Source: Akkermansia muciniphila
Lineage (GTDB): Bacteria > Verrucomicrobiota > Verrucomicrobiia > Methylacidiphilales > CAMAQI01
Length of the DNA: 64,000 nucleotides
Reading direction: 5' to 3'
Assembly (NCBI GenBank): GCA_945883905.1
Contig: CAMCYL010000003.1
Span: forward strand, 11 to 64,010
This document shows positions 11,931-64,000 of this stretch, piece after piece. Positions within the stretch are counted from its first letter, which is position 1. Each line of letters opens with the position of its first letter. A program made the position numbers and the translations under genes. The notes beneath the pieces are model-generated. The model worked only from the letters and a program-made list of their open reading frames with translations. It was not told the DNA's origin and ran no database searches.

Positions 11931-11955
11931 AAAAACGGATATTAGGAGTCACTTC

Positions 11956-12015: not shown

Positions 12016-12067
12016 CATTCAAACTGACCCCAACTGGACTGTGACCCCGGTGACTCCAGTGCACCGA

Positions 12068-12093
12068 GTCAGGCTGATGCCTGACGGCTTTTT
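12068..12093 (+). terminator. Intrinsic-terminator-like hairpin with no upstream plus-strand ORF
   Basis: gtcaggc (12068-12074), loop tgat, gcctgac (12079-12085), then ggcttttt (12086-12093). Confidence 0.4.
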
Positions 12094-12197
12094 GACTTTA
12101 AAAAATAAAAAATCCGCATGATGGGCTGAAGGGCTAAACGATTACTGCAGAGAAAAAGAAACTCGACTTAAAAAAATCTCTCTAGCACACTGTATAT

Positions 12198-12428: not shown

Positions 12429-12721
12429 AGATAAAAATTATCCGACCTGCCAGTAATGAATTGATCAGGGCAGTTGAATACTACGAAAGTGAGCAAGCCG
12501 GTTTAGGGCTTCGATTTTGGAATGAAGTCGACGAATATATTCGGTGGATAAAGTCTAATGCCACTGTTCCTCGGCTTCGCTCAAATTTATATCGACGTGT
12601 GAATTTGAAAATATTTCCATATCATCTTGTGTATTCAATAAGAGAAAAGAATATCATCATTTGGGCTGTAGCTAACAGCCACAAGAAGCCCGAACATTGG
12701 AAATCAAGAATTAGGAAATAA
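12425..12721 (+). CDS. Type II toxin, RelE/ParE superfamily
   Basis: 98 aa. A.ELIRAVEYYESE...FPYHLVYSIREKNIIIWAVANSHKKPEHW is typical ParE/RelE-like. There is a 4-nt overlap with the upstream antitoxin. Confidence 0.8.
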   Translation: MKIKIIRPASNELIRAVEYYESEQAGLGLRFWNEVDEYIRWIKSNATVPRLRSNLYRRVNLKIFPYHLVYSIREKNIIIWAVANSHKKPEHWKSRIRK

Positions 12722-12942
12722 TTTGATCCTGGTTCAATTGCCTAGATTGCTCAGCCACCGTATAAAATACCCGCAGTCCTTCTTCTCTAAATATCTCTCA
12801 AACAATCGGAATAAACACCGAGTTTCCCAAATGCTGTAAATTTAGCTTATTTTTACATAAAAACAAGTAATATTATACAGTTATTATACAAGGGTATATC
12901 TTTATAATCAACGACTTACAACATTTTTTTTCATTTCTGGGC

Positions 12943-12988
12943 TTGACGATTGGGGAGGAAAGTGGTTAAAAGTGGGGGAAGCTGGAGA
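12943..12988 (+). promoter_or_regulatory. Candidate dcw (Pmra) promoter overlapped by four 10-bp-phased direct repeats (putative MraZ boxes)
   Basis: TTGACG at 12943-12948, 17-nt spacer, TTAAAA at 12966-12971. Phased units are attggggagg (12949), aaagtggtta (12959), aaagtggggg (12969) and aagctggaga (12979), with core A(G/T)TGG. Confidence 0.45.
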
Positions 12989-13010
12989 ACAATCCACAAA
13001 AAAAGAGAAT

Positions 13011-13436
13011 ATGGCCACCGGATACCAAGGTAATTTTGAGCGCTCCTTTGATCAAAAGGGACGGATGACCGTGCCCTCGGATTGGCGGACAACGGCTCAT
13101 GAAAAAAGATTGAGTGTGATTCCTTTTAAGGGTCATCTCCGGGTTTATCCGCAGATATGGGTCGATGCTCAACAGGAAAAGTTGAGTGGTTTGAAGATGA
13201 ATGATCCGAAGGTGAAGGCTTGGGGAGATCTTCAAAGTATCAGTCAAGCGGCGGAGGCCGATGATCAAGGGCGACTGATGGTTCGCAATGAGTTGCGAGA
13301 GGTTGCGGTTTTGTCGGGGAATTTATTGCTTTTGGGAAAAGGAAGTCATTTTGAGATCTGGACTCTGGAGGAGGGGCGTAAGCAGCTCCCTGCGAAGACG
13401 ACATTTGAGGATGTTGCGGGAGTCCTGGATCTTTAG
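13011..13436 (+). CDS. mraZ: Transcriptional regulator MraZ
   Basis: The N-terminus MATGYQGNFERSFDQKGRMTVPSDWR matches the first MraZ half-domain. A second half-domain is DDQGRLMVRNELRE. First gene of the dcw cluster. I prefer ATG 13011 over the ORF-track GTG 12972. Confidence 0.9.
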   Translation: MATGYQGNFERSFDQKGRMTVPSDWRTTAHEKRLSVIPFKGHLRVYPQIWVDAQQEKLSGLKMNDPKVKAWGDLQSISQAAEADDQGRLMVRNELREVAVLSGNLLLLGKGSHFEIWTLEEGRKQLPAKTTFEDVAGVLDL

Positions 13437-13520
13437 AGAACAATATGCGAGCGAGAAACTGGATCCAAATTCGACTGAAAATGAATCAGCGAGTTTGTCC
13501 TCTCCAAGGTTTCAAGGCGC

Positions 13521-14507
13521 GTGTGTGGAGTCAGTGTCGTGAATCCAAAACCCGTACATCATCCGGTCTTATTGGAGGCGTTTTTGGACGCCGTTCAGCC
13601 GAAGCCCGATGAGCGATGGATTGATGGGACCTTTGGTCGCGGCGGACATACGAATGCCTTATTGGAACGGGGAGTGAAAGTACTGGCGTTTGATCAAGAT
13701 GCGGAGGCCGAGGCCGCCGCGGTTTTGGTCAAGGAACGTTGGGGGGAGTCGTTTCACTTTTTCCGTGAGAATTTTCGGGAGATGAAGCGGGTGAGTGAGT
13801 CGGTGGGATGGGAGAAGGTGGAGGGGATTCTTTTGGATCTCGGAGTTTCATCTCCACAGTTCGATCAGGCGCATCGTGGATTTAGTTTTCGGATGGAGGG
13901 ACCTTTGGATATGCGGATGGATGAGCGTCAGTATTTAACGGCGGCGCGAATTATTTCCGGAGAGTCAGAGGAGGGGTTGAGTCGGATTTTTTGGGAGCTT
14001 GGTGAGGATCGGGATTCTCGAAAGATTGCTCGGGCCATTGTTCAGGCGCGGGAAGTGAATCCGATTGAGACGACGACGCAGTTAGCAGCGCTCGTGACGG
14101 CAACGGTGCCGTGGCGGAAGGCGAAGGGGATTCATCCGGCGACGCAAGTTTTTCAAGCCTTGCGGTTGAAGGTGAATGAGGAGATTTCGGTATTGGAGGA
14201 GGTTTTGCCTGAGGGAACCGCTCTTTTATCGGAGGAGGGACGGTTTGCGGTGATTAGTTTTCACTCGGGAGAGGATCGGAGAGTGAAGCGGTTTTTTCAA
14301 CAGCACGCAGCGGCGGAGTTGGAGAATCCGAAAAATGGTTGGTTGGAACCGAATCCGGAGCGTTGGTATGGACGGGTCAAACGATTTTTGCCTGAGGAAG
14401 TGGAATTAGAGCGTAATCCGAGATCGCGCAGTGCGCGACTGAGGGTGGCATGGAAAAGTTTAAAGGAAGAAAAAAAGAGGAAATATTATGAGCCGAAATC
14501 GAGTTAA
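13521..14507 (+). CDS. rsmH: 16S rRNA (cytosine1402-N4)-methyltransferase
   Basis: HHPVLLEAFLDAV, DGTFGRGGHT and LLDLGVSSPQFD motifs. The start is ambiguous: GTG 13521 or GTG 13539. Confidence 0.95.
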   Translation: MCGVSVVNPKPVHHPVLLEAFLDAVQPKPDERWIDGTFGRGGHTNALLERGVKVLAFDQDAEAEAAAVLVKERWGESFHFFRENFREMKRVSESVGWEKVEGILLDLGVSSPQFDQAHRGFSFRMEGPLDMRMDERQYLTAARIISGESEEGLSRIFWELGEDRDSRKIARAIVQAREVNPIETTTQLAALVTATVPWRKAKGIHPATQVFQALRLKVNEEISVLEEVLPEGTALLSEEGRFAVISFHSGEDRRVKRFFQQHAAAELENPKNGWLEPNPERWYGRVKRFLPEEVELERNPRSRSARLRVAWKSLKEEKKRKYYEPKSS

Positions 14508-44179: not shown

Positions 44180-44392
44180 ATGTCCGAAATTATTTTTGAA
44201 ATTAAAGAAGATGAGATTGAGGGGGGGTATGTGGCGACCGCCCTTGGATACGGGATTCATACTCAATCAGACAATCTTCAAGAGCTTCGGAAAAACGTTA
44301 GAGAGGCGGTTGACTGTTATTTTGATGATCACGTTGTTTCCCCGCAAGTAATTCGTTTACATTTTGTTAAAGACGAAGTCTTTGCTCGATGA
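44180..44392 (+). CDS. hicB: HicB-family antitoxin (short form)
   Basis: 70 aa. EDEIEGGYVATALGYGIHTQSDNLQELRKNVREAVDCYFDD is a HicB-like RNase H-fold N-domain. There is a 4-nt overlap with hicA. Confidence 0.7.
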   Translation: MSEIIFEIKEDEIEGGYVATALGYGIHTQSDNLQELRKNVREAVDCYFDDHVVSPQVIRLHFVKDEVFAR

Positions 44393-44631
44393 AAATTCCC
44401 AGAAGTGTTAATGGTTCAGAACTTGTTAAATCCCTTAAGGTTCTAGGCTATTACGTTTCAAGACAAAAGGGTTCACACATTCGAATCACAACTCAATTAG
44501 ATGGGGAGAATCATGAGGTTATTCCACATCATAGTCCGATTAAAATAGGAACTCTTTCGAGTATTCTTAAAAGTGTTGCGATGCATCATAATATTTCTGT
44601 TGATGAATTAATTGAAAAACTAGAGATTTGA
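44389..44631 (+). CDS. hicA: HicA-family mRNA interferase toxin
   Basis: 80 aa. SELVKSLKVLGYYVSRQKGSHIRIT...HEVIPHHSPIKIGTLSSILK is HicA/YcfA-like, with a conserved His in KGSH. Confidence 0.8.
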   Translation: MKIPRSVNGSELVKSLKVLGYYVSRQKGSHIRITTQLDGENHEVIPHHSPIKIGTLSSILKSVAMHHNISVDELIEKLEI

Positions 44632-48670: not shown

Positions 48671-50023
48671 TCATCTTTTTTTTGTGATTTTGAAGAGGAC
48701 ATTCCCTTTTTTATAAGTATTTTTGAGAAGACGATTCCAACCGGAGACGGGTTTTCGAATGGCTCTTGGACAAGAACGTTTTCGTCTTTTTTTTGAGCAT
48801 TGAGACTGAAGAAGTTTGATAAGTCTGGAATGGAGGGTGGCGACTTTATCGGATTCAATGAGATCATGGAGCAGAGACCAGAGAGAGACAAATGCCCTGA
48901 TGAGATGGAGAGTTTTGATAAAGCTGATTTCCAAGAGGGAAGAGGGGAAGGATAGCGAGCAGGCGTTTCTGGCTTGTGCAACAATGCGTTGAGCGATGAG
49001 AAGACAGGCGATTTCTTGTGCGGCGGTGACAAGCGTATGGCTCAAGAGTAAGTCGGATCGACGAAGATCGACCTTGAGTTCTTTGTAGGCGGATTCGTGT
49101 TCCCATCGTTTTGCGTAAAGGGGAATGAGTTCTAAAGCCGGATAAACAAGAGGATCGAGAAGATTAGTCCAAAAGCGAACTCGGATCCATTTTCCGACGC
49201 GGGGTTTAATAAGGGCATGGATTTCACGTAAGAGGATCTTTTTTTGAGATGTATTGTCAAGAGTCTCGATGATCAAGGAGCCGTCGTTCAAAACGTAAAG
49301 CGTTTTAGATTTGGTGTTGGATTTGACTCGAATGAGAAAGGAGGGCTTGGCCTCTAAAGCGAGCAAGCCCGAGATTGTTTTTGGGCAACCATAGTATCGA
49401 TCAGCGATGAGAAGTTAATCGTTTTTTAAATGGGATGAAAGTTGAGAGGAAAGAGCCATTTCAGATTCACCTTCAATGCCGATTTGAGCGGCGAGCGGAT
49501 TATGGGTGCCGAGTTCATAAAGGGCGGAAAGTGAGATCTTTGAAAACGCGGATCCATTTCTTCTGGAGGGGTGTTTGATGGTCATTTTTTTGATTTGAGC
49601 AGAGTTGATCAAGCTCCACTGGGTTCCATCGGTTCCAACAAGCCGGAATGTTTTATAAAAAGAGTCCGGATTGGATTGAGGTTGGGCTAGAGGGCAAAGA
49701 ACTCGCTCAAGCAAGGAGTGGAAAAATGGAAATCCTAGGAGTTGACGTCGTTGACTTAGAGAGCTGTCACAAATTTTTGTTCCCGAGAGTTGGCGCACAT
49801 GGGAGGAGAGTGTCCCCGAACCTTGAAGAACATGAAAAACCATCGAAGCGATCAAAGAAAAAAGACTTAAAACAGAAGGAGCTCCCGCGGAAGATTTTTT
49901 TTGTTGTCGATGAAGAGCCAAAAGGGATCGGGGATGAATGAGCTTGGAGAAGAGGGAGAGAAAGTTGTTTTCGGAAAAAATGGAGGAAGAGATTGACGAA
50001 GGGGGGTGTTGTGATATAGTCAT
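48671..50023 (-). pseudogene. DDE transposase (IS4-like) interrupted by a single in-frame TAA
   Basis: The ORFs 49415-50023 and 48671-49366 are in the same frame. The TAA at 49415-49417 is followed immediately by LLIADRYYG, the first catalytic Asp context. The downstream part contains YAKRWEHESAYKELK, a Y-(2)-R-(3)-E-(6)-K-like motif. Confidence 0.85.
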
Positions 50024-50055: not shown

Positions 50056-50250
50056 ATGGGCTACAAGACAAAAATCCAAAAAGTGGAAAGACCAACCAAC
50101 CAATCCTACTACGCCAACATCCCCTCGGCACTTGCGCAAGCCATGGGAATCGACAAAGGCGAAGAGTTCGAGTGGGAAATCGAAAATAAAAACCTGCTCC
50201 TGCTCAAGCGGAGCACCGTACTACCCCTAAAAAAACTCAAAAAAACTTAA
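50056..50250 (+). CDS. Small AbrB/SpoVT/MazE-like DNA-binding protein encoded inside the IS (passenger ORF)
   Basis: 64 aa. YYANIPSALAQAMGIDKGEEFEWEIENKNLLLLKR fits the swapped-hairpin AbrB pattern, and AAGGA lies 6 nt upstream of the ATG. The ORF sits between the transposase start and IRR, divergent from the transposase. Confidence 0.5.
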   Translation: MGYKTKIQKVERPTNQSYYANIPSALAQAMGIDKGEEFEWEIENKNLLLLKRSTVLPLKKLKKT

Positions 50251-50319: not shown

Positions 50320-51636
50320 CTAGTCCGTTTTTTTTTGATATTTTTCGATCGCTTTTTGACGCCATTGTTCCCCGATTTTTTCAGCCTGAAGACGGTTGGA
50401 TTTCCAGAGAGGAATCGAAGCTTCAAACTCTTTTTCATCAAGGAGGGGGGTGAAGAGTTCGCTTTTTGCTTTTTCTTCTGGAGAGAGCGAGAGGTATTGT
50501 CGCCATGCTTGTTGCAGCTCAGAATGGGGATCAATTAGAGTTCGTCCCATGAGTTCATTGAGGGCTGTCCATCGTTGACTGGCTTTTGGAGAGTCGTAGA
50601 GAAAGGCCGGAGGATCGCTCAAAAAAGTGGGATTAATTTGCTGAAGGAGAGTGCTTTTACTTTGGAGGGAGGGGAGGATGGGGATTCTGGTAATTCCGTA
50701 GTGAACAGGACCTCCGCGTTGACCGATCGGAAGAACCCAGAGGGATTGACCTTTTTCAGAGAGTACGAAATCGATAAAACGTTGTGCGGCATCGAGATGG
50801 GGGGCTCCCCTAAAGAGGGCGATCCCATCGGGGATTAAAAGCGATTGATTTTGAGGATAAATATAGCGGACTTTGTCGGAACCGAGAGCGCCTTGAAGGG
50901 CGAGGGCATTGAGATCGATGGAGAGGGCGTGAGTGGCATTTCCGAGAGAGACCTCTTTGGTGGAGATCGAGGCGCTTTGGGAGAATGATTTTGCGTTGGC
51001 CGCCATTCTCATCAAGATACTCCAACCCTTTTCCCAACCGTAAGATTGAAGAATCATTTCGTAGATCATGTGGGCGCTTCCGCTTTTACGCGGCTCGACT
51101 AAAGAGAGGAGTCCTTTGAACTCCGGTTGTGCGAGATCCTCCCACTGTTGGACGGGAGGGAGTTTTTTGAGTTTGGCTAAAGGGATGTTTTCAAAAATTC
51201 CGAACGTGGAGAGAGCGGTGGCATAATAGTTTCCCTCGGAATCTTGAAGAGGGATTCCATGGAGGGCTTGAGGGAAGGAATTTGCAATTTCTTCAGAGAG
51301 AAAATAAGGAGCGAGATGCCCTTTATTTTTTTGATTTTCGAACGGATCGATGCCCCCTCCCCAGAAGAGATCAATTCCACAGGTGTTAGGATTTTTGGCG
51401 TAGAGGGCATCGATCGCTTTTTCGATTTGGGAGGTCCCTCCAATGTCACGCCAGCGAATCGTGATTCTTTTTCCTTGAGTTTGAAAATAATGCTCTTGAA
51501 AAGCACGCGTAAATTCCTTTTGGATTCCATCCCAGTGAGGAGAGACAATGATTAACTCATTTTCCTCTGCGAAAATCGTGGTGAGGGAGGAAGAAAGAGC
51601 GAGGAGAACAATGACCGTCAGGGTCCAGAGTCTCAT
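50320..51636 (-). CDS. Periplasmic ABC-transporter substrate-binding protein (iron(III)/solute-binding family 1-like), orphan
   Basis: 438 aa with a signal peptide (LWTLTVIVLLALSSSLTTIFA) and a type 2 PBP-like pattern (LIIVSPHWDGIQKEF..., DLFWGGG). No permease or ATPase gene is adjacent. Confidence 0.65.
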   Translation of the reverse strand: MRLWTLTVIVLLALSSSLTTIFAEENELIIVSPHWDGIQKEFTRAFQEHYFQTQGKRITIRWRDIGGTSQIEKAIDALYAKNPNTCGIDLFWGGGIDPFENQKNKGHLAPYFLSEEIANSFPQALHGIPLQDSEGNYYATALSTFGIFENIPLAKLKKLPPVQQWEDLAQPEFKGLLSLVEPRKSGSAHMIYEMILQSYGWEKGWSILMRMAANAKSFSQSASISTKEVSLGNATHALSIDLNALALQGALGSDKVRYIYPQNQSLLIPDGIALFRGAPHLDAAQRFIDFVLSEKGQSLWVLPIGQRGGPVHYGITRIPILPSLQSKSTLLQQINPTFLSDPPAFLYDSPKASQRWTALNELMGRTLIDPHSELQQAWRQYLSLSPEEKAKSELFTPLLDEKEFEASIPLWKSNRLQAEKIGEQWRQKAIEKYQKKTD

Positions 51637-51649
51637 TTCAAGAGAGCAA

Positions 51650-51862
51650 TTACGCCGGTCCTGCAGATTCGTCAGCTTCTATAATAGAGTCCAACGCTTG
51701 TCGGAAATCTTTGAGTCCGGGAGCCGGGATAATAATCGTATCCCGACGACCATTCACATCTTCGGTGATTCTTAAAAAACGTCCTCTCGGATTCTGTTTG
51801 AGATCAAAAAAGAAACACTTGCGTTCTACTGTAATTTTTTCACTTCGCATCAACTCATCCAT
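51650..51862 (-). CDS. Bacterial PUR-alpha-like (single PUR repeat, DUF3276-type) nucleic-acid-binding protein
   Basis: 70 aa. SEKITVERKCFFFDLKQNPRGRFLRITEDVNGRRDTIIIPAPGLKDFRQAL matches the PUR-repeat pattern (RK.F.FDLKEN.RGRFLRI.E....R..I.IP..G...F). Confidence 0.8.
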   Translation of the reverse strand: MDELMRSEKITVERKCFFFDLKQNPRGRFLRITEDVNGRRDTIIIPAPGLKDFRQALDSIIEADESAGPA

Positions 51863-52026
51863 AAAATATCCCTCCTAATTACTGACATAAAAGACCCTAG
51901 TGGATTATGGAAAGAAGTCAAAAAATTATTATTAGTACTATTGTTACATTGGAGAAACTATTTTTTTAAGATTATACCCTCGGAGGGGTTGTCGACTGGA
52001 GGGGGGATCTCCCAGAGAGAGGGACT

Positions 52027-52722
52027 ATGAATTTAACAATATTAGGGGCTATTTTTGTTTTAGGGGGCTTGCTCGGCTGTGCCTCAACCTCCTCTGAACC
52101 GGTGAGAATTGATCCAGGGGCTGTGATTCAAAAGAATTACGATTATTCCGCACCTGCAGATATCGATCGACAATCGAAGCCGGTTTGGATCCTGCCGATG
52201 ATGAATCAAGGCTGGGTTCCTGCTAAAATCGATCCTCAAAGCGGCGATTGGATGGGGGGGCACTATCAAGCGACGATCATTCAAGAGGGACATTGGGCAA
52301 CGTTGGAGGAGGCGGAGCAGTCGGGTAGACCGTATATAAGATCAGGGGAGGGACAACCGATCGTTCCGCCTTTATCGACTCCTGGTTCTTCTCAAGGAGG
52401 GGCGGAATTGGATTTAGCGCATTTAGAATCGCGAATCACGAACCTCGAACGGGAGCCGAGGGAGTCGATACCGGTCCCTCCAAAGGAGGAATCGCCGCGG
52501 AAGGGGAACTGGGTGGAGGTTCCCCCTCAAAAGGCGGGAACAGTCGAGACTCATGAGATGGGAAATCAGCGAAAGTTGATTATTCGCTATCGGGAGAATG
52601 ACGAAGTGGAGATTCAGTATGGATCGAAGCAATATGTGAGGAAATTACCGCATTCGAATGCGGTTCTGAGGATCACGATACCGGAGGGGACTCAGTCAGA
52701 GCAAGGCTCCCCATCGAATTAG
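52027..52722 (+). CDS. Hypothetical lipoprotein
   Basis: 231 aa with the lipobox LGGLLGC at the end of a signal peptide. I recognise no family. Confidence 0.55.
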   Translation: MNLTILGAIFVLGGLLGCASTSSEPVRIDPGAVIQKNYDYSAPADIDRQSKPVWILPMMNQGWVPAKIDPQSGDWMGGHYQATIIQEGHWATLEEAEQSGRPYIRSGEGQPIVPPLSTPGSSQGGAELDLAHLESRITNLEREPRESIPVPPKEESPRKGNWVEVPPQKAGTVETHEMGNQRKLIIRYRENDEVEIQYGSKQYVRKLPHSNAVLRITIPEGTQSEQGSPSN

Positions 52723-52843
52723 GAATAGCAAAGAGGATCGGCGGATTATGGAAAATAAAATTTATAGTCGAGTGAATCGATCGAGATCTTTACTGTTGAA
52801 TCTTTATTCGAATCGAGGAGTATGGAGTAAGCAGGAAGATAAT

Positions 52844-53938
52844 ATGGGCGATTTTGGAAAATTGAATAAAATAAAACTATCTGGTTTTAAATCGATACGG
52901 GAGATGGAATTAGATCTCACCTCGCTTAATATTTTGATCGGTCCGAATGGAGTTGGGAAATCGAATTTTATCCATTTTTTTAGGTTTATGAATCAGCTTC
53001 GCTCAAAAGAGCTGCAGATTTATGTTTCTCAAAAGGGAACTGCAGAGAGATTTCTTCATTTTGGTGAAAAGGAGACAAAGTCGATTCAGGCGCATCTTCA
53101 ATTTGATCCGAATGAATATAAAGTTGAATTAGTTCCGACCCAAGAGGGAAAGCTTATTTTTAAAAGTGAGGAGGTCATTTTTAATGCCGATAAGATCCGC
53201 TATCAAGGAGGGATCAAGCGATTTTCCTTAGCCAATGCGGGACAAGAGGAGTCTGGATTGCCGCCACCGAGTACGTTGACAGCAGCAAGTCATGTGTCTG
53301 GATATATCGCTGATTGGAAAATCTATCACTTTCATGATACAAGTGATACCTCTGCACTAAAAAAAGTTTCGAATATCAATGATAATGTGCGCTTGAGTCC
53401 TCAGGGCGAAAATCTTGCGGCATTTCTGTTTTCGATTCAGAGGACCACGGAGTACCAGAAGATTGTCGAGACCATTCAACGGGTTGCTCCTTTTTTTCAA
53501 GATTTTATTTTAATTCCTGACAAAAATAATATCGATCAAATCCGGCTTCGATGGAAGCATAAGGGGTCAGATTCCTATTTTGATGCGAATAGTCTTTCAG
53601 ATGGAACGTTACGATTCATTTGTTTAACGACTCTCTTGTTGCAGCCTTATCATCCAACAGTCATTTTATTGGATGAACCAGAACTCGGTTTGCACCCTTA
53701 TGCGATTCATTTATTGGCTGCGATGATTAAAAGTGCTTCAACAAAAACGCAGATCATTGCCTCCACTCAATCGGTGACCTTAGCGAATCAGTTTGAGTGG
53801 CAAAACATCGTGATTGTAGAGCAAAAAGACGGCGCTTCACATTTTAGTCGCCTCGAAGAAAGTGATGTTAAAATCTGGCTTGATGACTATAAAATGGGAG
53901 AGCTTTGGGAGAAAAACCTCATTCGAGGAACTCCTTAA
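52844..53938 (+). CDS. ABC-type (AAA_15/AAA_21-like, SMC/OLD-related) ATPase
   Basis: Walker A is GPNGVGKSNF (nt about 52940-52969). The signature-like motif is LSDGTLRFICL and Walker B is VILLDEPELGLHP, followed by IIASTQS. I prefer ATG 52844 with the AGGAAG Shine-Dalgarno sequence over the ORF-track ATG 52748. Confidence 0.85.
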   Translation: MGDFGKLNKIKLSGFKSIREMELDLTSLNILIGPNGVGKSNFIHFFRFMNQLRSKELQIYVSQKGTAERFLHFGEKETKSIQAHLQFDPNEYKVELVPTQEGKLIFKSEEVIFNADKIRYQGGIKRFSLANAGQEESGLPPPSTLTAASHVSGYIADWKIYHFHDTSDTSALKKVSNINDNVRLSPQGENLAAFLFSIQRTTEYQKIVETIQRVAPFFQDFILIPDKNNIDQIRLRWKHKGSDSYFDANSLSDGTLRFICLTTLLLQPYHPTVILLDEPELGLHPYAIHLLAAMIKSASTKTQIIASTQSVTLANQFEWQNIVIVEQKDGASHFSRLEESDVKIWLDDYKMGELWEKNLIRGTP

Positions 53939-54540
53939 TGAAAAGAGTGGGAGTGAGTGCGGAGGGGGCAACCGAATTGGAGTTTATTAAACGAGTCATC
54001 GCTCCTTATTTTTATGAAAACAATAGAGCCTATATTACTCCTGTTGATATGGGGGGTAATGTTTCAATTCAAAGAGCGGGTGATGAAATTAAAAAGCTTT
54101 TGAGAGGATTTGATGTTGTCACAACGCTTTACGACTTTTATGGCTTCAAAGGTAAAGGAGTGAGAACTGTTGAGATGTTGGAAGAGGATTTAATGAAAGC
54201 GGCAGAGTGCACCTCCAAGGGTTTATTTATTCCTTATATTCAAATCTACGAATTTGAAGCCCTTGTCATCAGCGATCCTGAATCTTTATGCAATCAAATG
54301 GGATCGATTTCTAAAACGGAAGAAAATGAAATTCAGGCGTTTATCGATCAAAAAGGGGGGGCAGAGAAGGTAAACGATAGTAAGGAGACAACGCCTTCAA
54401 ATCGAATTTTAAAATTATTTCCTCAATACGAAAAAAAACTCCATGGACCTCCTATTTGTCAGAAAATTGGAATGAAAGTTCTGAGGGAGAGATGTCCTCG
54501 GTTTAATCAGTGGATTGAAAAAATAAACAGGGGTCTTTAG
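53938..54540 (+). CDS. DUF4276-family protein (predicted Toprim-like nuclease partner)
   Basis: It has N-terminal VSAEGATELEFIKRVIAPYF (the EGxTE motif) and TTLYDFYGF. FIPYIQIYEFEALVISDP matches the family hallmark as I recall it (FIPYIQLHEFEALLF). C-terminal PSNRILKLFPQYEKKLHGPPICQKIG...CPRFNQWIEKI is also present. The ATG at 53938 overlaps the ATPase stop (TAATG). Confidence 0.75.
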   Translation: MKRVGVSAEGATELEFIKRVIAPYFYENNRAYITPVDMGGNVSIQRAGDEIKKLLRGFDVVTTLYDFYGFKGKGVRTVEMLEEDLMKAAECTSKGLFIPYIQIYEFEALVISDPESLCNQMGSISKTEENEIQAFIDQKGGAEKVNDSKETTPSNRILKLFPQYEKKLHGPPICQKIGMKVLRERCPRFNQWIEKINRGL

Positions 54541-54561
54541 TTTGGACTCAAAATCTATTTC

Positions 54562-55692
54562 ATGGGTTCAAAAATTATCTTAATAACGCACGAGTTCGCT
54601 CCTTATCGAGGGGGGGTGGCAACGTATTGTGAAGAGGTCGCTCGTGCTGCGGTGCGGTTGGGGTATGAGATTGAGGTTTGGACGCAGGGGAATTCGCAAG
54701 AGGATGATCGGTTTCCCTTTTTGGTGCGGCGTTTGCCAGGGGTCGGAAACTTAAGGCCTCTTTCACTGTTTTTATTCGCTTTTTCACTTCTTTGGAGGAC
54801 TGAGGATCTCAAGGGAGCTCGTGTTTATCTTCCGAGTCGGGGCTCTCAATGGGTTTATATGAATCTTTACCGACTTTTCGGTTGGAATCCGGGGAGAGAG
54901 ATGATCACGACGTTTCATGGAACCGAAATCTTACGCTATGCGCGAAATAGTTGGTTAAGAAAGTGTGCGGATTTATTTTTTACAGGATCAGTCCATCGAT
55001 TGACCACGGCCTCGCATTATTCAGTGCAGTTGCTTCAAGAGAAGGGATTTGGAGCTTGGACTGCCGAGATAAAGGTGGCTCCGTGTGCGCTGAAGTACGA
55101 TTTTCAACGCATTGAAGGTCGGTCGCTTCGTCAAGAGAAAGAGCCTTTAAATGAGTTTCGAGTTTTGACCTTAGCGCGGGTGCATCCTCGCAAGGGGCAG
55201 GGGGAGGTCGCTAAGGCTTTGGGGGGTCTACCATTAGAACTTCGCGCTCGTGTGATTTATCAAATTGCGGGAAAAGGGGATAAAGATTATTTAGATCAGG
55301 TGGTGAATCAGTGTCAGAGGTCCGGAGTTTGCTGCGAGGTTTTGGGGGAGATTGCCGAGAATAAAATTGCAGAGACTTATCAGAACTGTGATCTCTATGT
55401 GATGACAAGCCATTCACTTGCAGAAAGTGTGGAGGGATTCGGAATGACCTACTTAGAGGCGAGCTTCTTTCAGAGACCGGTCATCGGTTATCGAACGGGA
55501 GGAGTAGCGGAGGCTGTGATCGATGAAAAAACCGGATTTTTGGTCGAGGAGGGAGATCTTCAAGGATTAACAAACGCAATCAAGCGGATCTTGATGAATC
55601 CGATTTTGGCGCGTGACATGGGAGAGGCGGGGCGTAAACATGCTCTCTCATTTTCATGGGAAAGAACGGCACAAATACTTTTTGGAGTATGA
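54562..55692 (+). CDS. Glycosyltransferase family 4 (GT-B, Glycos_transf_1)
   Basis: 376 aa with ITHEFAPYRGGVATY and the E-x7-E region EGFGMTYLEASFFQRPVIGYRTGGVAEAV. Confidence 0.88.
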   Translation: MGSKIILITHEFAPYRGGVATYCEEVARAAVRLGYEIEVWTQGNSQEDDRFPFLVRRLPGVGNLRPLSLFLFAFSLLWRTEDLKGARVYLPSRGSQWVYMNLYRLFGWNPGREMITTFHGTEILRYARNSWLRKCADLFFTGSVHRLTTASHYSVQLLQEKGFGAWTAEIKVAPCALKYDFQRIEGRSLRQEKEPLNEFRVLTLARVHPRKGQGEVAKALGGLPLELRARVIYQIAGKGDKDYLDQVVNQCQRSGVCCEVLGEIAENKIAETYQNCDLYVMTSHSLAESVEGFGMTYLEASFFQRPVIGYRTGGVAEAVIDEKTGFLVEEGDLQGLTNAIKRILMNPILARDMGEAGRKHALSFSWERTAQILFGV

Positions 55693-55702
55693 AAGGATTC
55701 GA

Positions 55703-56398
55703 ATGTTAAAAAAATCTAATTTTTACTACGCTTTAACGTGGTTCTTTGGCCGTCCAATTTTGGATTGGGGGATGAATATCCATTCGACGGGAGGAGAAAA
55801 TCTTCCGGAAAAAGGGCCCGTTTTATTGCTCTCGAATCATATTAGTCACTTTGATCCTCCGCTGGTAGGGTATGGCCTCCGTCGGGCGGTCGATTTTTTA
55901 GCGAGTGCGGAGTTTTTTGAGAACAAATGGGTGAATCGATTTTTTAGATCGATTAATACCTATCCTTTTAAACGAGATCAGGCACAGGATTTAACGGCAA
56001 TGCGTTGGGTTCGAACGAGTTTAAATGAGGATCGGGTCGTTTGTATTTTTCCGGAGCGAGGAATTCGTTACGGGGAAAAGTCGGTTTTAGCCGGGAAATT
56101 ATTTCCCCCTGGAACGGCAGAGGTTGCATTTCGCTGGGGAGTGACGGTTATTCCGACGGTTGTATTAGGAAGTGATCATTTTTACACGTTAAAGGCGTGG
56201 AAGAATCGACAGTCGGTGTATGTGACTTATTTGCCAGCAATTCATCCCCAAGATTTTAAGAGTGCGGCTGAGATGAATCGAGCGATTGGAGAATCGATGC
56301 ATCAAGAGGTTCGTCGTTTGAAGCGGATTTATGATCTGAATGAAAGTATTATGCCGATTGCTGCAGAAGAACATTGGGGAAAGCCAGTTCCTGCTTAA
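55703..56398 (+). CDS. plsC: 1-acyl-sn-glycerol-3-phosphate acyltransferase family protein
   Basis: HX4D motif LLSNHISHFDPP and FPERG. I prefer ATG 55703 (after AAAGGA) to the ORF-track start 55613, which overlaps the glycosyltransferase gene. Confidence 0.82.
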   Translation: MLKKSNFYYALTWFFGRPILDWGMNIHSTGGENLPEKGPVLLLSNHISHFDPPLVGYGLRRAVDFLASAEFFENKWVNRFFRSINTYPFKRDQAQDLTAMRWVRTSLNEDRVVCIFPERGIRYGEKSVLAGKLFPPGTAEVAFRWGVTVIPTVVLGSDHFYTLKAWKNRQSVYVTYLPAIHPQDFKSAAEMNRAIGESMHQEVRRLKRIYDLNESIMPIAAEEHWGKPVPA

Positions 56399-56428
56399 GT
56401 TTTAAAATTTCCGACCGATAACGGTAGG

Positions 56429-56800
56429 ATGAGCTCTCTTTTTAAAGTTTCTCCTGCAAAAAAAACCAGCCAAGCGATGGCTCGTTGTATTTTATTGGGG
56501 GTTGGGGGGATTGTTTCGACCTATTTAATCTCAGAAGTGGTTCCCTTTTATGGGGCAGATATCCCTTTTTCTTTTCATTTAACCTGTGGCTTAGTCGTGG
56601 CAGTTATTCTGTTGGCGACCTTGACCGCGCTCTATCGTCTGTCTCTTCCTTCCTCTTTTTCAGTTGAGAATTCTAATTTCATAAAAAAGCCTTTGAAATC
56701 GACTCATTCCGCTGATCGCTCGATTCGAACACAGCGATCTCCGTTAGTGGTTCCGTTGAGTTTCAATAAAAATGAGATCGCTTGGTTTGAGCGGAACTAA
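56429..56800 (+). CDS. Hypothetical small membrane protein
   Basis: 123 aa with two hydrophobic helices (CILLGVGGIVSTYLI, LTCGLVVAVILLATLTAL). I recognise no family. Confidence 0.4.
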   Translation: MSSLFKVSPAKKTSQAMARCILLGVGGIVSTYLISEVVPFYGADIPFSFHLTCGLVVAVILLATLTALYRLSLPSSFSVENSNFIKKPLKSTHSADRSIRTQRSPLVVPLSFNKNEIAWFERN

Positions 56801-56845
56801 TTTTACCGCTTTTCCTTTTTCATCGTTTCGCTAATCCGATTAGGA

Positions 56846-57475
56846 ATGAATCCGTGGTTTTTATTCAGCATCGCCTTTGTTTTGGGCTCAGTTCCGTTTG
56901 GATATTGGGTGGGGAAAAGTCAAGGCATCGATATTCGTCAGCATGGCAGTGGTAATATTGGATCGACAAATGTCGCCCGGGTCATGGGAAAAAAGTGGGG
57001 ACTACTTGTTTTTATACTCGATTTTTTCAAAGGATGGAGTGCGGTCATTTTAATGACGAAGTCAGCACTTTTCTTGGATCCGGAAACGTTACCCCTCTGG
57101 AGCGCCGCCGCCGCAATTGCGGTCATTTTAGGTCATAATTATACCCCTTGGCTGCGGTTTAAAGGGGGGAAAGGAATTGCGACCTCCGCCGGAGTTTTGT
57201 TGGCCATGATGCCGTGGGCTTTATCTGCCGGCTTATTGAGTTGGATTTTTCTTATGAAAGTGACCAAAACGGTTTCAATTGCCTCGCTCACGGCCTGCAT
57301 CGTCGTTCCTTGTTCCGCTTGGTTTTTATATCCAGGAGAGAAGGTCCTTTTTGGATTTGCGGTTATAGCCGGTGCGATGGGAATTTGGCGGCATCGCTCG
57401 AATATTCGACGCTTAATCTCAGGAGAGGAATTTACCTTTAAAAAGGAAGAGTCAAAAGCTGAGGGAGAATCTTGA
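56846..57475 (+). CDS. plsY: Glycerol-3-phosphate acyltransferase PlsY
   Basis: 209 aa with GSVPFGYWVGKSQGIDIRQHGSGNIGSTNVARVMGKKWG and FKGGKGIATSAG. Confidence 0.95.
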   Translation: MNPWFLFSIAFVLGSVPFGYWVGKSQGIDIRQHGSGNIGSTNVARVMGKKWGLLVFILDFFKGWSAVILMTKSALFLDPETLPLWSAAAAIAVILGHNYTPWLRFKGGKGIATSAGVLLAMMPWALSAGLLSWIFLMKVTKTVSIASLTACIVVPCSAWFLYPGEKVLFGFAVIAGAMGIWRHRSNIRRLISGEEFTFKKEESKAEGES

Positions 57476-58356
57476 AGATTGGACTCTTAGGGGCGGGGGC
57501 CTGGGGGGGAGCGATCGGAGAGAAGATCCGAGGCCAAGGACATTCGGTGGTGGTCCATCACCACGGGGAATCAAACTGGAAAGAGAGTTTTGAGGCCTTG
57601 ATTTTAGGGCTTCCTGTACAGCATGTGAGATCCACCTTGAGTCGCTTTTCAGACCCGGCGGTCCCCATTCTCAGTTTAAGTAAAGGCATGGAGATTGGAA
57701 CGCATCAACGAGTCAGTCAGATGATTCTCGATACCTATCCGAAATCAAAGTGTGGGGTTTTGTCTGGTCCGACCTTTGCAGAGGAGGTGGTGCAAGGATT
57801 GCCAGCGGTGGCGGTGATTGCGAGTGATTGCAGTGAAACCAGAGTATTTTTTCACGACCTTTTGCATGACTCTCGATTACGACTTTATAGCTCCTCTGAT
57901 GTCGTTGGTGTGGAACTTGGGGGAGCCCTTAAAAATGTCTATGCGATTGCTGCCGGAGTTTGTCGGGAATTGAAATTGGGTGAGAATGCTTGGGCGGGAC
58001 TATTAACTCGTTGCTTAGCTGAGATGACTCGGATTGGAATGAGCCTTGGAGGAAGACCTGAGACCTTTGCGGGATTAAGTGGGGTGGGGGATTTGATGCT
58101 GACGGCATCCAGTGATAAGAGTCGGAATTTTCGGGTTGGTCAGCAGATAGTTCGAGGGGAGATCCTCGAGGATCTTTTGGGGAAAATAGGAGGCGTAGCG
58201 GAGGGAGTCTCCACGGCTAAGGCAATCTATAGTGATGATCGGATCCCTGCCGAGTCCAAGCCGATTGCGATTGAGGTGTATCGAATCTTGTATGAGGGAA
58301 AATCGCCGGCCTCTGCCGTAAAATCATTGATGGAGCGTGCAAAAACTTCGGAATAA
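57472..58356 (+). CDS. gpsA: NAD(P)H-dependent glycerol-3-phosphate dehydrogenase
   Basis: 294 aa with IGLLGAGAWGGAIG, SGPTFAEEV and GALKNVYAIAAG. The TTG start overlaps the plsY stop. Confidence 0.9.
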   Translation: MKIGLLGAGAWGGAIGEKIRGQGHSVVVHHHGESNWKESFEALILGLPVQHVRSTLSRFSDPAVPILSLSKGMEIGTHQRVSQMILDTYPKSKCGVLSGPTFAEEVVQGLPAVAVIASDCSETRVFFHDLLHDSRLRLYSSSDVVGVELGGALKNVYAIAAGVCRELKLGENAWAGLLTRCLAEMTRIGMSLGGRPETFAGLSGVGDLMLTASSDKSRNFRVGQQIVRGEILEDLLGKIGGVAEGVSTAKAIYSDDRIPAESKPIAIEVYRILYEGKSPASAVKSLMERAKTSE

Positions 58357-58385
58357 AAGGGCGGGCAAAGGACTCTTACCTGCGT

Positions 58386-58898
58386 ATGAAAAAAATAATA
58401 GGATTGAGTTTGGGATTGTTTCTCTGTTGGGCTTGTGGGGGAGATCCACAAATCAAGAAAGAGAACTCCTCCCATTCACTTCCGCTGAGTGGAGTAAAGC
58501 GTATGGATCGAATTATTAAAACGGAAGAGGAGTGGAAGAAGCAATTAACGGCCGAACAGTTTGAAGTCGCCCGAGCAAAGGGGACGGAGCGCGCATTTTG
58601 CGGGAAGTTGACCGATCATAAGGAGGAGGGGATTTATAAGTGTGTTTGTTGCGATCTTCCTCTTTTTTCATCGAAACATAAATTTCATTCAGGAACCGGA
58701 TGGCCCAGTTTTTTTGATGTGATTGATCGAAATAATGTAGCGACAGAGAGCGATCATAAATACGGAATGAATCGAACAGAGATTCTTTGCGCCCGGTGTG
58801 ATGCTCATTTAGGCCACGTCTTTGAGGATGGTCCTGCTCCTACAGGATTGCGTTACTGTTTGAATTCAGTCTCGATGGTTTTTAAGGCAGGGCTTTAA
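58386..58898 (+). CDS. msrB: Peptide-methionine (R)-S-oxide reductase MsrB, exported/lipoprotein form
   Basis: 170 aa with a signal/lipobox (LGLFLCWAC), zinc cysteines CVCCDLPLF and CARCDAHLGHVF, and catalytic RYCLNS. Confidence 0.93.
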   Translation: MKKIIGLSLGLFLCWACGGDPQIKKENSSHSLPLSGVKRMDRIIKTEEEWKKQLTAEQFEVARAKGTERAFCGKLTDHKEEGIYKCVCCDLPLFSSKHKFHSGTGWPSFFDVIDRNNVATESDHKYGMNRTEILCARCDAHLGHVFEDGPAPTGLRYCLNSVSMVFKAGL

Positions 58899-61734: not shown

Positions 61735-63825
61735 TTAAGCCGGAGCCCCTTGGAAGCCAGGAAGGAGGCCGTCCTCCTTTTTCGGTTTAGAAACCGGAGG
61801 ATTTTCGGGGAGGGGCTCGGAAGGGGTTGGATTGATGGGCGGATCGATTTTTTTAATCGGCGGGTTACTCATTTTTCCCTCTTTAATTAAATCGATCACA
61901 TTTTGACCATCGAGAACTTCATAGTCTAAGAGCGCTTGTGTAATGAGCTCCATTTTATCGCGGTTCGTTAAAATCATCTCTTTGGCACGAGCATACGCGG
62001 AGCTCACGAGTTCAAGGACCTCTTTATCGATCAATTGAGCGGTCGCTTCACTATAACTTCGTTGTGAGCTGAGATCTCGACCAAGGAAGGTCATGTTGGA
62101 ATCGGCACCATAGTGGATCATTCCCAATTTTTCACTCATTCCCCAATCGCAAACCATTTTCTTCGCATACCACGTGGCCATATTGATATCCCCTGAGGCC
62201 CCGCTACTAATATCGCCGATGAATACCTCCTCGGCGACTCGACCTCCCATGGTAACGCAAAGGTCATCGATGATCTTTCTGCGAGAATGTCCCAAGAGAT
62301 CCTCTTTCGGAAGCATCATCGTGACGCCTAAAGCAGGACCACGAGGAATGATGGAGACTTTGTGAAGTGGATCGGTGTGATCAAGAAGAACATTTAGAAG
62401 TGCATGACCCGCCTCATGATAAGCGGTGATCTTTTTCTGCTCCTCAGTCATCGCCATGCTCCGACGTTCGCGTCCCCAACGGACCTTATCGCGAGACTCC
62501 TCGAGTTCACTTTGACCGATCGACTCCTTCCCACGACGAACCGCAAGAAGGGCCGCTTCATTTAAAAGATTCGCGAGTTCCGCTCCAGAGAATCCAGGGG
62601 TTCCACGGGCAATGAGTCCCAGTTCCGCCTTTACATCGAGCTTCACTTTATTGGCGTGAACCTTGAGAATCTCTTCGCGACCTTTAATATCAGGAAGATT
62701 AATCATCACCTCACGATCAAAACGACCGGGACGAAGTAATGCCGGATCCAAAACATCTTTACGATTTGTGGCGGCAATCATGATGATCCCCTCTTGGGTA
62801 TCGATTCCATCCATCTCGACGAGCATTGCATTGAGGGTCTGCTCCCGTTCATCGTGACCTCCCCCCATTCCACTACCACGGGCCCGTCCCACGGCATCGA
62901 TCTCATCGATGAAGATCAGACAAGGGGCATTTTTGCGGCCTTGCTCAAACATATCACGAACACGAGAGGCACCGACCCCAACGAACATTTCAACAAAATC
63001 AGAACCGCTAATGCTAAAAAAGGGAACGTCCGCTTCACCCGCAATCGCTTTAGCGATCAAGGTTTTTCCGGTTCCCGGAGGTCCGACCATGAGAATTCCC
63101 TTGGGAATTCGACCCCCCAGCTTCGAGAATTTTTTGGGGTCTTTTAGGAAGTCAACGATTTCGTGAACCTCATCTTTCGCCTCTTCCACACCAGCGACAT
63201 CTTTGAAGGTAATTTTCTTTTTATCTCGCGAGAGTAACTTCGCTCTGCTTTTCCCAAAACTAAAAGCTCCCTTGCCGGCCATTTTGATCTGTTGGCGGAA
63301 AAGAAAATAGAGAATCAGGATGAACAGAATAAAAGGAAGAGTGCTAATAAGGATCTGCTCCCATTTATGTTCATTGAGTTTTGAGTCAAGATCCGGATAG
63401 CCATTCGCGGCAAGGAAGGTATTGAGATCGCGATTCCAATCGGTATCAATAATTGTTTGGAAATTAGTCGAAACCGGTTTTCCCGTTTTTTCATCCTTTT
63501 TAAGATATTTCCCTTCGAGATAAGATTTGCCGGTGTTTTCACGAACAAAGGCCAACGATTCAATCGTCTTTTGACCGCTCTCCTTTTGAGTTCGAATCAT
63601 CTCCTTAAATTTAGAGAGTTGAATCTCCTCGGTGACGCCGATCGGCTTTTGGAAAAAATAAAAAGCGAGGATAATGGCAGCGAAACAAGAGATAAAAAGG
63701 AAGACCCCCTTCATCGATTCGTTATCTCCATCCCCGTCATTGGAGTTTTTCGGTTTCGGACGCTTACGAACCGGCGGTTTTTCAGTTTTCGACTTCTTAG
63801 GAAATTTGACTTCTGGATCAGACAT
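61735..63825 (-). CDS. ftsH: ATP-dependent zinc metalloprotease FtsH
   Basis: Walker [19 protein letters not shown], Walker [12 protein letters not shown] region [19 protein letters not shown], and zinc site HEAGHAL. I prefer ATG 63825 (MSDPEV...); the ORF-track start is 63885. Confidence 0.93.
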
Positions 63826-64000
63826 ATGGGAGAACGTAGGGGCTCCGAAGGGGAATGCAAATCCGAAATCGATAAACGGCAACAATATCGCTGTTTTTTT
63901 GATTCAATTGCTCTGCAATCGGTTTTCTTAGTTTCTCGATCGAATAGGGATCAATCTGTTTTATTAAATTGCTTTTGAGTTGTCCCTAAAATCAAAATCG

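Follow-up and report, generated by a model that had tools for sequence, protein, structure and literature searches.

The question raised by positions 52844 to 54540 of the analyzed stretch of DNA (64,000 nucleotides, hereafter the window) is whether two overlapping genes, one for an ABC-type ATPase and one for a DUF4276 protein, form an undescribed anti-phage system, for which the original prediction had named them the best candidate. The ORFs of 364 and 200 amino acids (aa), their overlap and the motifs quoted for them were all confirmed in the sequence and its translation. The ATPase gene is localized on the plus strand at 52844-53938, with the start codon ATG at 52844 and the stop codon TAA at 53936-53938, and the DUF4276 gene follows on the same strand from the ATG at 53938 to 54540, the A of TAATG at 53936-53940 being common to both ORFs. 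This 1-nt stop/start overlap, indicating translational coupling of the two genes, is preceded by GAGGA at 53925-53929, 5' of the second start, a plausible candidate ribosome-binding site for the DUF4276 gene.

A Shine-Dalgarno-like AGGAAG (52833-52838) lies 5' of the ATPase start within the upstream intergenic leader (52723-52843, plus strand), which also includes the nonconserved 5' extension of a longer ORF. This alternative ORF of 396 aa, used by public gene calls (P0121), begins with ATG at 52748. The start at 52844 is the better choice, because homologues of the ATPase are 363 to 367 aa long and indels in the alignment with the closest relative, genome L003, break the frame of the extension. 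The same alignment contains a conserved block approximately 15 to 50 nt 5' of the ATPase ATG. Around the pair, scans for promoters and terminators yielded hits no more numerous than in shuffled sequence.

Both proteins matched models of PADLOC-DB v2.0.0 over their full length, the ATPase HEC-01A (PDLC04175, E = 1.1e-143, 476.7 bits, protein residues 6-364 on model positions 5-362 of 363) and the DUF4276 protein HEC-01B (PDLC04188, E = 2e-55, residues 1-197 on positions 12-224 of 230). Five further HEC-01B models matched the DUF4276 protein, and no other PADLOC family did. The claim of an undescribed system fails on these full-length matches: the pair is a new copy of the named candidate anti-phage system HEC-01 (Hma-embedded candidate 01), not a new system. 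Both consist of adjacent genes in one orientation, the first for an ABC ATPase and the second for a small protein of TOPRIM-like type. Unlike in the discovery context of HEC-01, this copy lies outside any Hma or restriction-modification (RM) system, and the models do not require such embedding.

The accompanying expectation that DUF4276 had no place in any named or tested system was also not borne out, as phage tests of HEC-01 have been published and the domain is used by MADS and Menshen; it has been described as a member of the Toprim superfamily, as Mad4 of MADS, and as the effector domain of Menshen NsnC. Payne et al. [quoted passage not shown] A later cold-seep study (10.1101/2024.09.26.614923) reports protection of E. 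coli B by another HEC-01 representative against one or more of the phages T4, T5, and T7, with no magnitude given for HEC-01 in the text consulted. No publication on the mechanism or structure of HEC-01 was found in the literature searched. The system is therefore named already and characterized in part; profile models exist, phages have been tested twice, and the fold assignment is in the literature, so that the discovery value of the present copy is small.

The prediction of an ABC-type ATPase was supported for HEC-01A, a compact Rad50/SMC/OLD-like protein with Pfam matches to AAA_21 (6.9e-31), AAA_15 (1.3e-16), and SMC_N (9.4e-14). It carries Walker A GPNGVGKSNF at aa 33-42 (Walker A coordinates 52940-52963) with the lysine K39, the ABC-signature-like LSDGTLRF at aa 251-258 (53594-53617), and Walker B ILLDEPELGLHP at aa 274-285 (53663-53698) with D277 and E278. 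At the H-loop position, located by alignment to STHS of GajA, the sequence is TQS (53765-53773) and Gln309 replaces His. K39, S252, and D277-E278 are invariant among 75 HEC-01A orthologues, and Gln309 is likewise invariant, a universal H-loop Gln that adds to the description of the family. The AF2 model (pLDDT 90.1) has no long coiled coil, and in Foldseek it matched PtuA, Rad50, SMC heads, Ts OLD, and GajA, the similarity to Rad50 and SMC heads (TM 0.56-0.60) being at least equal to that to defense ATPases. Among the other PADLOC models, those of AriA reached E-values of 1.5e-29 and 9e-18, against 1e-143 for the HEC-01A model, and Old (1.5e-17) and GajA (1.6e-16) gave partial matches only; the phmmer match to AriA was confined to aa 247-321.

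The second protein, HEC-01B, had been assigned to DUF4276 and to a Toprim/OLD-like fold, and both assignments held. DUF4276 is its sole Pfam match (3.5e-39, 191 of 192 model positions covered), and it contains the motifs EGATE (aa 9-13), TTLYDFY (aa 62-68), and FIPYIQIYEFEALVISDP (aa 97-114). [quoted passage not shown] What is added here is that HEC-01B resembles these regions and not AriB of PARIS. AriB is a DUF4435 protein, no PADLOC AriB model matched HEC-01B, and 8ux9, the entry used for the PARIS comparison, was not among its top 50 fold matches.

Invariance in HEC-01B was read from two alignments, one of 45 sequences and one of 9 diverse sequences. The invariant residues are E9, E13, G40, D66, E105, E107, E143, R156, and K166, with E9 (Glu after beta1) and G40 (Gly after beta2) invariant in both sets. 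Class 2 OLD and HEC-01B agree in the order of their conserved residues, from the E-x3-E pair through a Gly behind beta2 and an Asp behind beta3 to an acidic x-E that opens the helical part and a Lys inside the helical domain; the metal-site ligands of Bp OLD are E400, E404, Gly, D455, T506-x-E508, and K562. In HEC-01B, the putative additional ligands E13, E105-x-E107, and K166 or R156 are invariant and stand in the order expected of the OLD ligands. This mapping relies on order and secondary structure because a profile search of the HEC-01B family against PDB sequences gave no residue-level alignment and nothing meaningful, the OLD similarity being undetectable by sequence. The conserved set of E9 and E13 (within 53962-53976), D66 (54133-54135), E105 and E107 (54250-54258), and K166 (54433-54435), which likewise extends the published account, comprises the predicted metal ligands of HEC-01B.

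The DxD motif after beta3 is not intact in HEC-01B, since Y68 follows the invariant D66 in place of the second Asp. Every aligned sequence has D-[FYM]-[YQ] here, with Gln in L003, and the second Asp of the OLD motif is never present. In Bp OLD, the corresponding D457 touches metal A only via water, and single mutants are tolerated. A role of Tyr68 as a topoisomerase-like catalytic tyrosine was considered and dropped on account of the Gln in the closest relative. Because of the degenerate D-x-Y/Q motif and the Gln in place of the H-loop His, the catalytic details of HEC-01 may differ from those of the systems used as models.

In composition, the pair was found to be AT-rich, as the original prediction had judged by eye. 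The GC contents of the ATPase gene (0.399) and the DUF4276 gene (0.385) are the two lowest among the 51 long ORFs of the window (mean 0.474, sd 0.028), and GC3 is 0.38 and 0.35, compared to 0.466 (sd 0.049). The flanking genes are a lipoprotein gene upstream and GT4/plsC/plsY/gpsA downstream. The long plus-strand run ascribed to the locus begins only at the lipoprotein gene (52027) and ends with msrB (58898), and the SBP and PurA-like genes directly upstream of it are on the minus strand. No target-site duplication and no att-like repeat were seen at the insertion junctions. The genes of the window belong to core metabolism and the cell wall, and in this Verrucomicrobiota (Methylacidiphilales-like) genome the pair stands alone among housekeeping genes. 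Homologues of the GT4 gene product include Verrucomicrobiota and Methylacidiphilales proteins, but none from a cultured Methylacidiphilum was among the close matches, and the assignment to that genus is uncertain. The PADLOC scan of the 64-kb window gave no genuine defense hit around the pair and no defense island; hits to DndA/SspA, RtcR, and IetA were rejected as housekeeping look-alikes, i.e., NifS, an NtrC-type regulator, and FtsH.

The GT4 glycosyltransferase gene starts 22 nt 3' of HEC-01B on the same strand, and its product exceeds the cut-off of PF20706 GT4-conflict (30.0 bits versus 26), which would suit a larger system that includes it, e.g., a defense operon linked to nucleic-acid or surface glycosylation. 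Such a system is exceedingly improbable. The generic Glycos_transf_1 model scores far higher (104 bits), the order of the GT4, acyltransferase, plsY, and gpsA genes is kept in the genomes L083, L084, and L086, which lack the pair, and no GT4 homologue adjoins the pair in the other 79 genome loci. Based on the synteny in the relatives without the pair, the GT4 gene was rejected as a part of the HEC-01 system.

The description of the pair as a two-gene insert was corroborated by the sister genome L083, in which the synteny is identical and the site is empty; in another relative, a small nuclease gene of the PDDEXK_3 type occupies the site. The divergence of the pair from L003 resembles that of the flanking genes, which suggests vertical inheritance since the split from L003 and stable residence, not rapid turnover. 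Such inheritance, together with a window of core metabolism and cell wall genes, mostly housekeeping neighbors in 43 genomes, and an ATPase model at least as similar to Rad50 and SMC heads as to defense ATPases, would also be compatible with a housekeeping module for repair or processing of nucleic acid on the host chromosome, comparable to Rad50/Mre11 or RecF/RecR. We regard this role as very unlikely, given that the pair is missing from the syntenic L083 and its place is taken elsewhere by a small nuclease gene of another kind, that its GC is the lowest of the window and homologues are found on plasmids, that a conserved functional partner or operon context is lacking, and that the nearest homologues outside the lineage are only 50 to 70% identical and dispersed among many phyla.

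Across genomes, the anticipated adjacency is conserved. All 79 testable genomes, drawn from more than 10 phyla, have the ATPase gene directly 5' of the DUF4276 gene in the same orientation. Among 78 related loci, the stop of the first gene overlaps the start of the second in 73, by 1 to 8 nt in 72 and by 19 nt in one, with the 4-nt NTGA overlap in 47 of the overlapping loci. No third gene recurs beside the pair in 43 genomic loci. HEC-01 as a strictly two-gene, translationally coupled unit over this phylogenetic range is a further addition to what was published. The family comprises approximately 4,100 clusters at 50% identity, and the nearest homologues outside the own lineage are approximately 60% (HEC-01A) and 45 to 50% (HEC-01B) identical. 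Thirteen plasmid records carry a HEC-01B homologue, always with the ATPase gene alongside, and with the empty site in L083 and the low GC these copies make the distribution patchy. No phage copy of HEC-01B was detected by tblastn against 50,697 phage records, and a search of BFVD by fold gave nothing beyond one weak match, which was RloB-like.

The neighbors of the pair are mostly housekeeping genes, without a defense island in most of the 43 genomic loci. A minority of loci have the pair flanked by methylase and ResIII-type genes, consistent with the published occurrence of HEC-01 inside Hma and RM systems. The frequent location of HEC-01 outside defense islands may be the reason that island-based screens overlooked it and that its role has not been settled.

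On the small mobilizable plasmid pTR11_2, the pair adjoins vapBC in an accessory/stability region. This neighborhood would be in line with an addiction or stability module resembling a toxin-antitoxin (TA) system, in which HEC-01B would be the toxic nuclease and HEC-01A its ATP-dependent neutralizer, with the pair maintained because losing it would harm the cell and with phage defense incidental or absent. The tight overlap of the two genes, their stable maintenance amid housekeeping genes in two lineages, and the one negative phage screen point the same way, as do the Pfam label of AAA_21 ('putative AbiEii toxin, Type IV TA system') and the PDB entry 8v45, which calls AriA an 'antitoxin.' The two roles are, however, not mutually exclusive, since PARIS operates in exactly this manner and is a defense system; moreover, one report of phage protection exists for HEC-01 and some loci are inside RM/Hma-like operons. 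As the primary function, addiction is considered unlikely.

A defense function is preferred, and it is likely that the pair is a self-contained, horizontally mobile module of the HEC-01 family, composed of an ABC ATPase and an OLD-like Toprim nuclease, with a mechanism like that of PARIS, OLD, and Gabija. By analogy with these systems, the most likely scheme comprises complex formation, a trigger, cleavage of DNA or tRNA/RNA, and an abortive outcome. The overlapping genes would yield the two proteins in a fixed proportion, leading to a complex in which the ATPase would keep the nuclease inactive. A cue from a phage or mobile element would alter the ATP-bound state of the ATPase, and the nuclease, released or activated, would cut nucleic acid by a two-metal mechanism via the predicted ligand residues. 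The infection would be stopped, with host growth paid as the price.

Against the defense model stand the negative phage screen in K-12, which is the only systematic one, the mostly housekeeping neighborhoods, the vertical inheritance with L003, and the absence of phage-borne copies from the records searched. Together with the D-x-Y/Q motif and an ATPase reduced to the head, whose invariant H-loop Gln suggests a slow-hydrolysis, switch-like enzyme, these observations leave room for a mode of action other than that of PARIS and OLD, with another target or role, e.g., exclusion of plasmids or other nonphage elements or a stress-triggered RNA/tRNA nuclease, under a type of regulation so far not seen among OLD-like systems. 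To this we assign a small chance, and the PARIS/OLD/Gabija-like defense module remains the preferred reading.

Of these model systems, PARIS (AriA/AriB; class 4 OLD-like) also consists of two genes, for an ABC ATPase of the AAA_15/21 group and a separate Toprim nuclease, and the logic of an ATPase that senses and sequesters and a nuclease that acts as the effector is probably shared with the pair. They differ in that the AriA hexamer is built by coiled-coil insertions, which the 364-aa head of HEC-01A lacks, and in that phages and satellites are the usual carriers of PARIS; OLD contrasts with HEC-01 likewise in phage carriage. The ATPases of OLD and GajA belong to the same broad class as HEC-01A, but in both systems the ATPase and Toprim parts are fused in one polypeptide, compared to two overlapping genes here, and the UvrD/GajB-type helicase partner of class 2 OLD and Gabija is not found beside the pair.

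MADS (Mad3/Mad4) and Menshen (NsnB/NsnC) also combine an AAA_15/21-type ABC ATPase with a Toprim protein of the DUF4276 family as the presumed effector. MADS is a multigene system that includes a methyltransferase, and no methylase or mad genes were found near the pair or in the window. Menshen has the three genes NsnA, NsnB, and NsnC, with no NsnA or NsnC in the window. HEC-01B did not match PADLOC mad4 or NsnC at E <= 0.01. HEC-01A scored 94.3 bits on the NCBIfam model antiphage_MADS3 (MAD3), compared to its cut-off of 420, and matched PADLOC NsnB at 1.7e-21.

The gene pair at 52844 to 54540 adds a member, here in a Verrucomicrobiota genome, to HEC-01, a candidate family that had already been catalogued, and is not a previously undescribed system. 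The upstream gene (HEC-01A; ATG 52844 to TAA 53938, plus strand, 364 aa) and the downstream gene (HEC-01B; ATG 53938 to TAG 54540, plus strand, 200 aa) share one base in the TAATG at 53936 to 53940. Their translations contain every motif quoted in the original prediction, namely, Walker A GPNGVGKSNF, signature-like LSDGTLRF, and Walker B ILLDEPELGLHP in HEC-01A, and EGATE, TTLYDFY, and FIPYIQIYEFEALVISDP in HEC-01B. Pfam matched HEC-01A to AAA_21 (6.9e-31), AAA_15, and SMC_N and identified HEC-01B as DUF4276, as proposed (3.5e-39, 191 of 192 model positions). In PADLOC-DB v2.0.0, the HEC-01A model covered the ATPase end to end (PDLC04175, E = 1.1e-143), with far weaker matches from the AriA, mad3, AbiLi, NsnB, Old, and GajA models (1e-29 to 1e-14), and its partner matched only HEC-01B models (PDLC04188, E = 2e-55). 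Public gene callers use a longer HEC-01A (P0121; ATG 52748, 396 aa), which judging by homologues and by alignment to the closest relative, L003, begins 32 codons too early (52748 to 52843). The start at ATG 52844 was preferred because homologues measure 363 to 367 aa, the 5' extension is disrupted by indels in L003, and AGGAAG lies 5 nt before this ATG.

In the description by Payne et al. (bioRxiv 10.1101/2024.01.29.577857), HEC-01 consists of an ABC ATPase together with an associated TOPRIM protein and has a metal-binding site in common with the Burkholderia OLD nuclease. DUF4276 was placed in the Toprim superfamily by the Menshen study (PMC12065111), according to which Mad4 of MADS is also a DUF4276 homologue, and the PARIS paper (PMC11464382) counts "MADS3-4" among the ABC-ATPase plus TOPRIM systems. 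The notion that DUF4276 belongs to no named or tested system was therefore wrong; what was seen in the sequence held, and the interpretation held in part, the claim of a previously undescribed system giving way to HEC-01. The experimental record of the family is conflicting. A representative in E. coli K-12 ΔRM protected against none of the phages tested (Payne et al., 10.1101/2024.01.29.577857), whereas a later cold-seep study (10.1101/2024.09.26.614923) reports HEC-01 among four candidates protecting E. coli B from one or more of T4, T5, and T7. No mechanism or solved structure of HEC-01 was found in the literature searched or in the PDB.

A genome scan for HEC-01B relatives, with one genome per species, returned at least 580 loci, of which the best 80 were kept. 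The predicted co-location and translational coupling recurred throughout: in 79 of the 80 loci HEC-01A immediately preceded its partner in the same orientation, the remaining locus having just 68 bases of contig upstream, and the two genes overlapped in 73 of 78 loci among the best 80 (4 nt, NTGA, in 47; 7 nt in 19; 8 nt in 4; 1 nt in 2; 19 nt in 1). The best 80 loci were spread over Pseudomonadota, Campylobacterota, Chloroflexota, Thermodesulfobacteriota, Nitrospinota, Nitrospirota, Acidobacteriota, Gemmatimonadota, Latescibacterota, Cyanobacteriota, Spirochaetota, Verrucomicrobiota, and others. When 1.84 billion representatives were searched with a profile, 4,128 clusters matched at E ≤ 1e-3, and 2,935 did so at E ≤ 1e-10. 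The pair is also mobile, with HEC-01B copies on 13 plasmid records at 28 to 35% identity. Among the 11 annotated in PLSDB, an "AAA family ATPase" lay at or overlapping the match in nine and directly upstream in the one checked of the other two. The plasmids include a mobilizable one of 11 kb from Acinetobacter, on which the pair neighbors vapBC and tet(39), and one from Nostoc, where it adjoins an AIPR gene. Phage records gave no HEC-01B matches, and no viral predicted structure matched.

In a census of 43 loci, covering two genes on each side, no third gene recurred and the neighbors were largely housekeeping genes. RM or Hma-like genes made up a minority (N6_N4_Mtase, 3; ResIII, 3; N6_Mtase, 2; RE_endonuc, 2; Type_ISP_C, 1), and Fic, nucleotidyltransferase, and transposase neighbors occurred twice each. 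In four proteobacterial loci (L008, L043, L060, and L069; approximately positions 5400 to 14000 of each) the pair was flanked by same-strand genes of ~600 to 1150 aa, a setting that would be consistent with the Hma or RM surroundings in which HEC-01 was discovered, unlike the context in the window; the methylase and ResIII-type matches are those counted over the census neighbors as a whole.

The AT-rich character noted by eye was confirmed by computation, with the pair having the lowest GC content (0.399 for HEC-01A and 0.385 for HEC-01B) among 51 long ORFs in the window (mean, 0.474; standard deviation, 0.028). L003, from a MAG titled Methylacidiphilum sp. Phi and the closest locus among the best 80 of at least 580, aligned collinearly with 50351 to 58888 in a single alignment at 76% identity, with the pair in the same place (protein identity, 84% for HEC-01A and 74% for HEC-01B). 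Both values fall inside the range of the flanking genes (54 to 99%, mostly 76 to 89%). The related locus L083 (GCA_945877805.1), whose glycosyltransferase gene GT4 is equally similar (77%), shares the gene order SBP, PurA-like, lipoprotein, GT4, acyltransferase, plsY, gpsA, and msrB; its lipoprotein-GT4 gap is ~48 bp (6953 to 7000) and the pair site is empty, in agreement with the proposed two-gene insert. In locus L086, a 140-aa PDDEXK_3 gene occupies this position (3034 to 3456). The pair was thus inserted at a small variable spot, the lipoprotein-GT4 gap, whose intergenic stretches on either side of the pair in the window are 52723 to 52843 and 54541 to 54561; no repeats or att-like sequences were seen at the junctions. 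It was acquired before the window lineage split from that of L003, and its base composition is still foreign. A GT4-linked operon including the pair was refuted by the same synteny: GT4 keeps its gene order in relatives lacking the pair and was ruled out as part of the system. GT4 itself (54562 to 55692, plus strand), which has the look of a housekeeping gene, scored 30 bits against PF20706 "GT4-conflict" (cut-off, 26), likely an over-call, since the gene is syntenic with plsC, plsY, and gpsA in pair-less relatives.

The HEC-01A model (pLDDT 90.1) matched ABC ATPases (E = 1e-13 to 1e-11, TM 0.43 to 0.60), including PtuA-type ATPases of Septu and retron systems, Rad50 and SMC heads, Thermus OLD, and GajA; with Pfam, this supported an ABC-type ATPase. 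In the model it is head-only; its first insert is rich in beta structure, and two short helices stand in for the coiled coils of its relatives. K39, S252-D-G, and D277-E278 were invariant in 75 orthologues (27 to 100% identity). The H-loop position, set by alignment to GajA STHS, was Gln in all 75. Here this Gln, in place of the histidine of ABC ATPases, lies in TQS (aa 308 to 310; 53765 to 53773) and may slow or alter ATP hydrolysis.

An AlphaFold2 model of HEC-01B built from 45 homologues (mean pLDDT 94.6, pTM 0.90) supported the suggested Toprim/OLD-like fold. Its sole Foldseek PDB matches below E = 0.01 were C-terminal regions of class 2 OLD nucleases from Xanthomonas (6njv, E = 4.9e-4, TM 0.51) and Burkholderia (6nk8, E = 9e-4, TM 0.55), each aligned over ~220 columns spanning the Toprim core and helical domain; the PARIS nuclease AriB (8ux9) was absent from the top 50. 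Residues E9, G10, E13, G40, D66, E105, E107, E143, R156, and K166 were invariant in the 45 close homologues and nine diverse ones, including plasmid copies at 30 to 36% identity. In the predicted secondary structure, E9 and E13 immediately follow beta1, G40 follows beta2, D66 ends beta3, E105-x-E107 opens the first helix past beta4, and K166 lies within the helical domain. This is the order of E400, E404, the invariant Gly, D455, T506-x-E508, and K562 in Burkholderia OLD, mapped by order and not by superposition. In none of the homologues aligned did the canonical DxD have its second Asp: the position (DFY, aa 66 to 68; 54133 to 54141) is Tyr family-wide and Gln in L003. In Burkholderia OLD this Asp contacts metal A via water alone and tolerates single substitutions, so by analogy the change need not abolish activity. 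Because the Menshen paper (PMC12065111) reports DxD in its DUF4276 domains, DUF4276 clades may vary at this position.

The evidence best supports an OLD/PARIS-type logic divided between two genes. By analogy, the two proteins would be produced together and probably associate, an infection cue would lead the ATPase to gate the HEC-01B nuclease, and the latter would then cleave nucleic acid through two-metal chemistry. Family membership, the folds, the conserved catalytic residues, the coupling of the genes, and mobility were shown, and the complex, trigger, substrate, and outcome are inferred. The modeled fold hints weakly at OLD-like action on DNA rather than AriB-like tRNA cleavage. Weighing against a simple defense role are the negative screen in E. 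coli K-12 ΔRM, the housekeeping neighborhoods, vertical retention since the split from L003, and absence from phages. That the pair is an addiction module is compatible with the divided OLD/PARIS-type logic, and the patchy occurrence of the pair, its low GC, and its plasmid copies speak against a repair function. The additions to HEC-01 are modest: an effector that is OLD-like and not AriB-like, D-x-Y/Q for DxD, the H-loop Gln, strict two-gene coupling, and an often non-island context.

The genes in the remainder of the window serve core metabolism and synthesis of the cell wall (sdhAB, mur genes, priA, nifS, an ntrC-type regulator, and ftsH). The other PADLOC matches in the window, with DndA/SspA, RtcR, and IetA models down to 5e-151, were housekeeping look-alikes (a cysteine desulfurase, a sigma-54 activator, and FtsH; ftsH at 61735 to 63885); as isolated single-protein matches to ordinary housekeeping proteins, they do not point to defense systems. 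Two adjacent ORFs (231 and 202 aa; 48671 to 50023, minus strand) resemble a split IS4-type DDE transposase, the first with a weak DDE_Tnp_1 match (E = 6e-5) and the second with no Pfam match, and are probably a decayed insertion sequence; neither occurs in L003 or L083, the relatives with shared synteny. Adjoining them, a 64-aa AbrB/MazE-like (SpoVT-type) ORF (50056 to 50250, plus strand) with no obvious toxin partner was confined to the lineage of the window itself (L001) and is absent from L003. The sole other conflict-type module noticed near the pair, ~9 kb upstream, was a toxin-antitoxin pair of HicB-like (70 aa) and HicA (80 aa) genes with a 4-nt overlap (44180 to 44631, plus strand). 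A 70-aa PurA-family (PUR-alpha-like ssDNA/RNA-binding) protein (51650 to 51862, minus strand) was unusually conserved, being 98.6% identical to its L003 orthologue, compared to ~77% for its neighbors.
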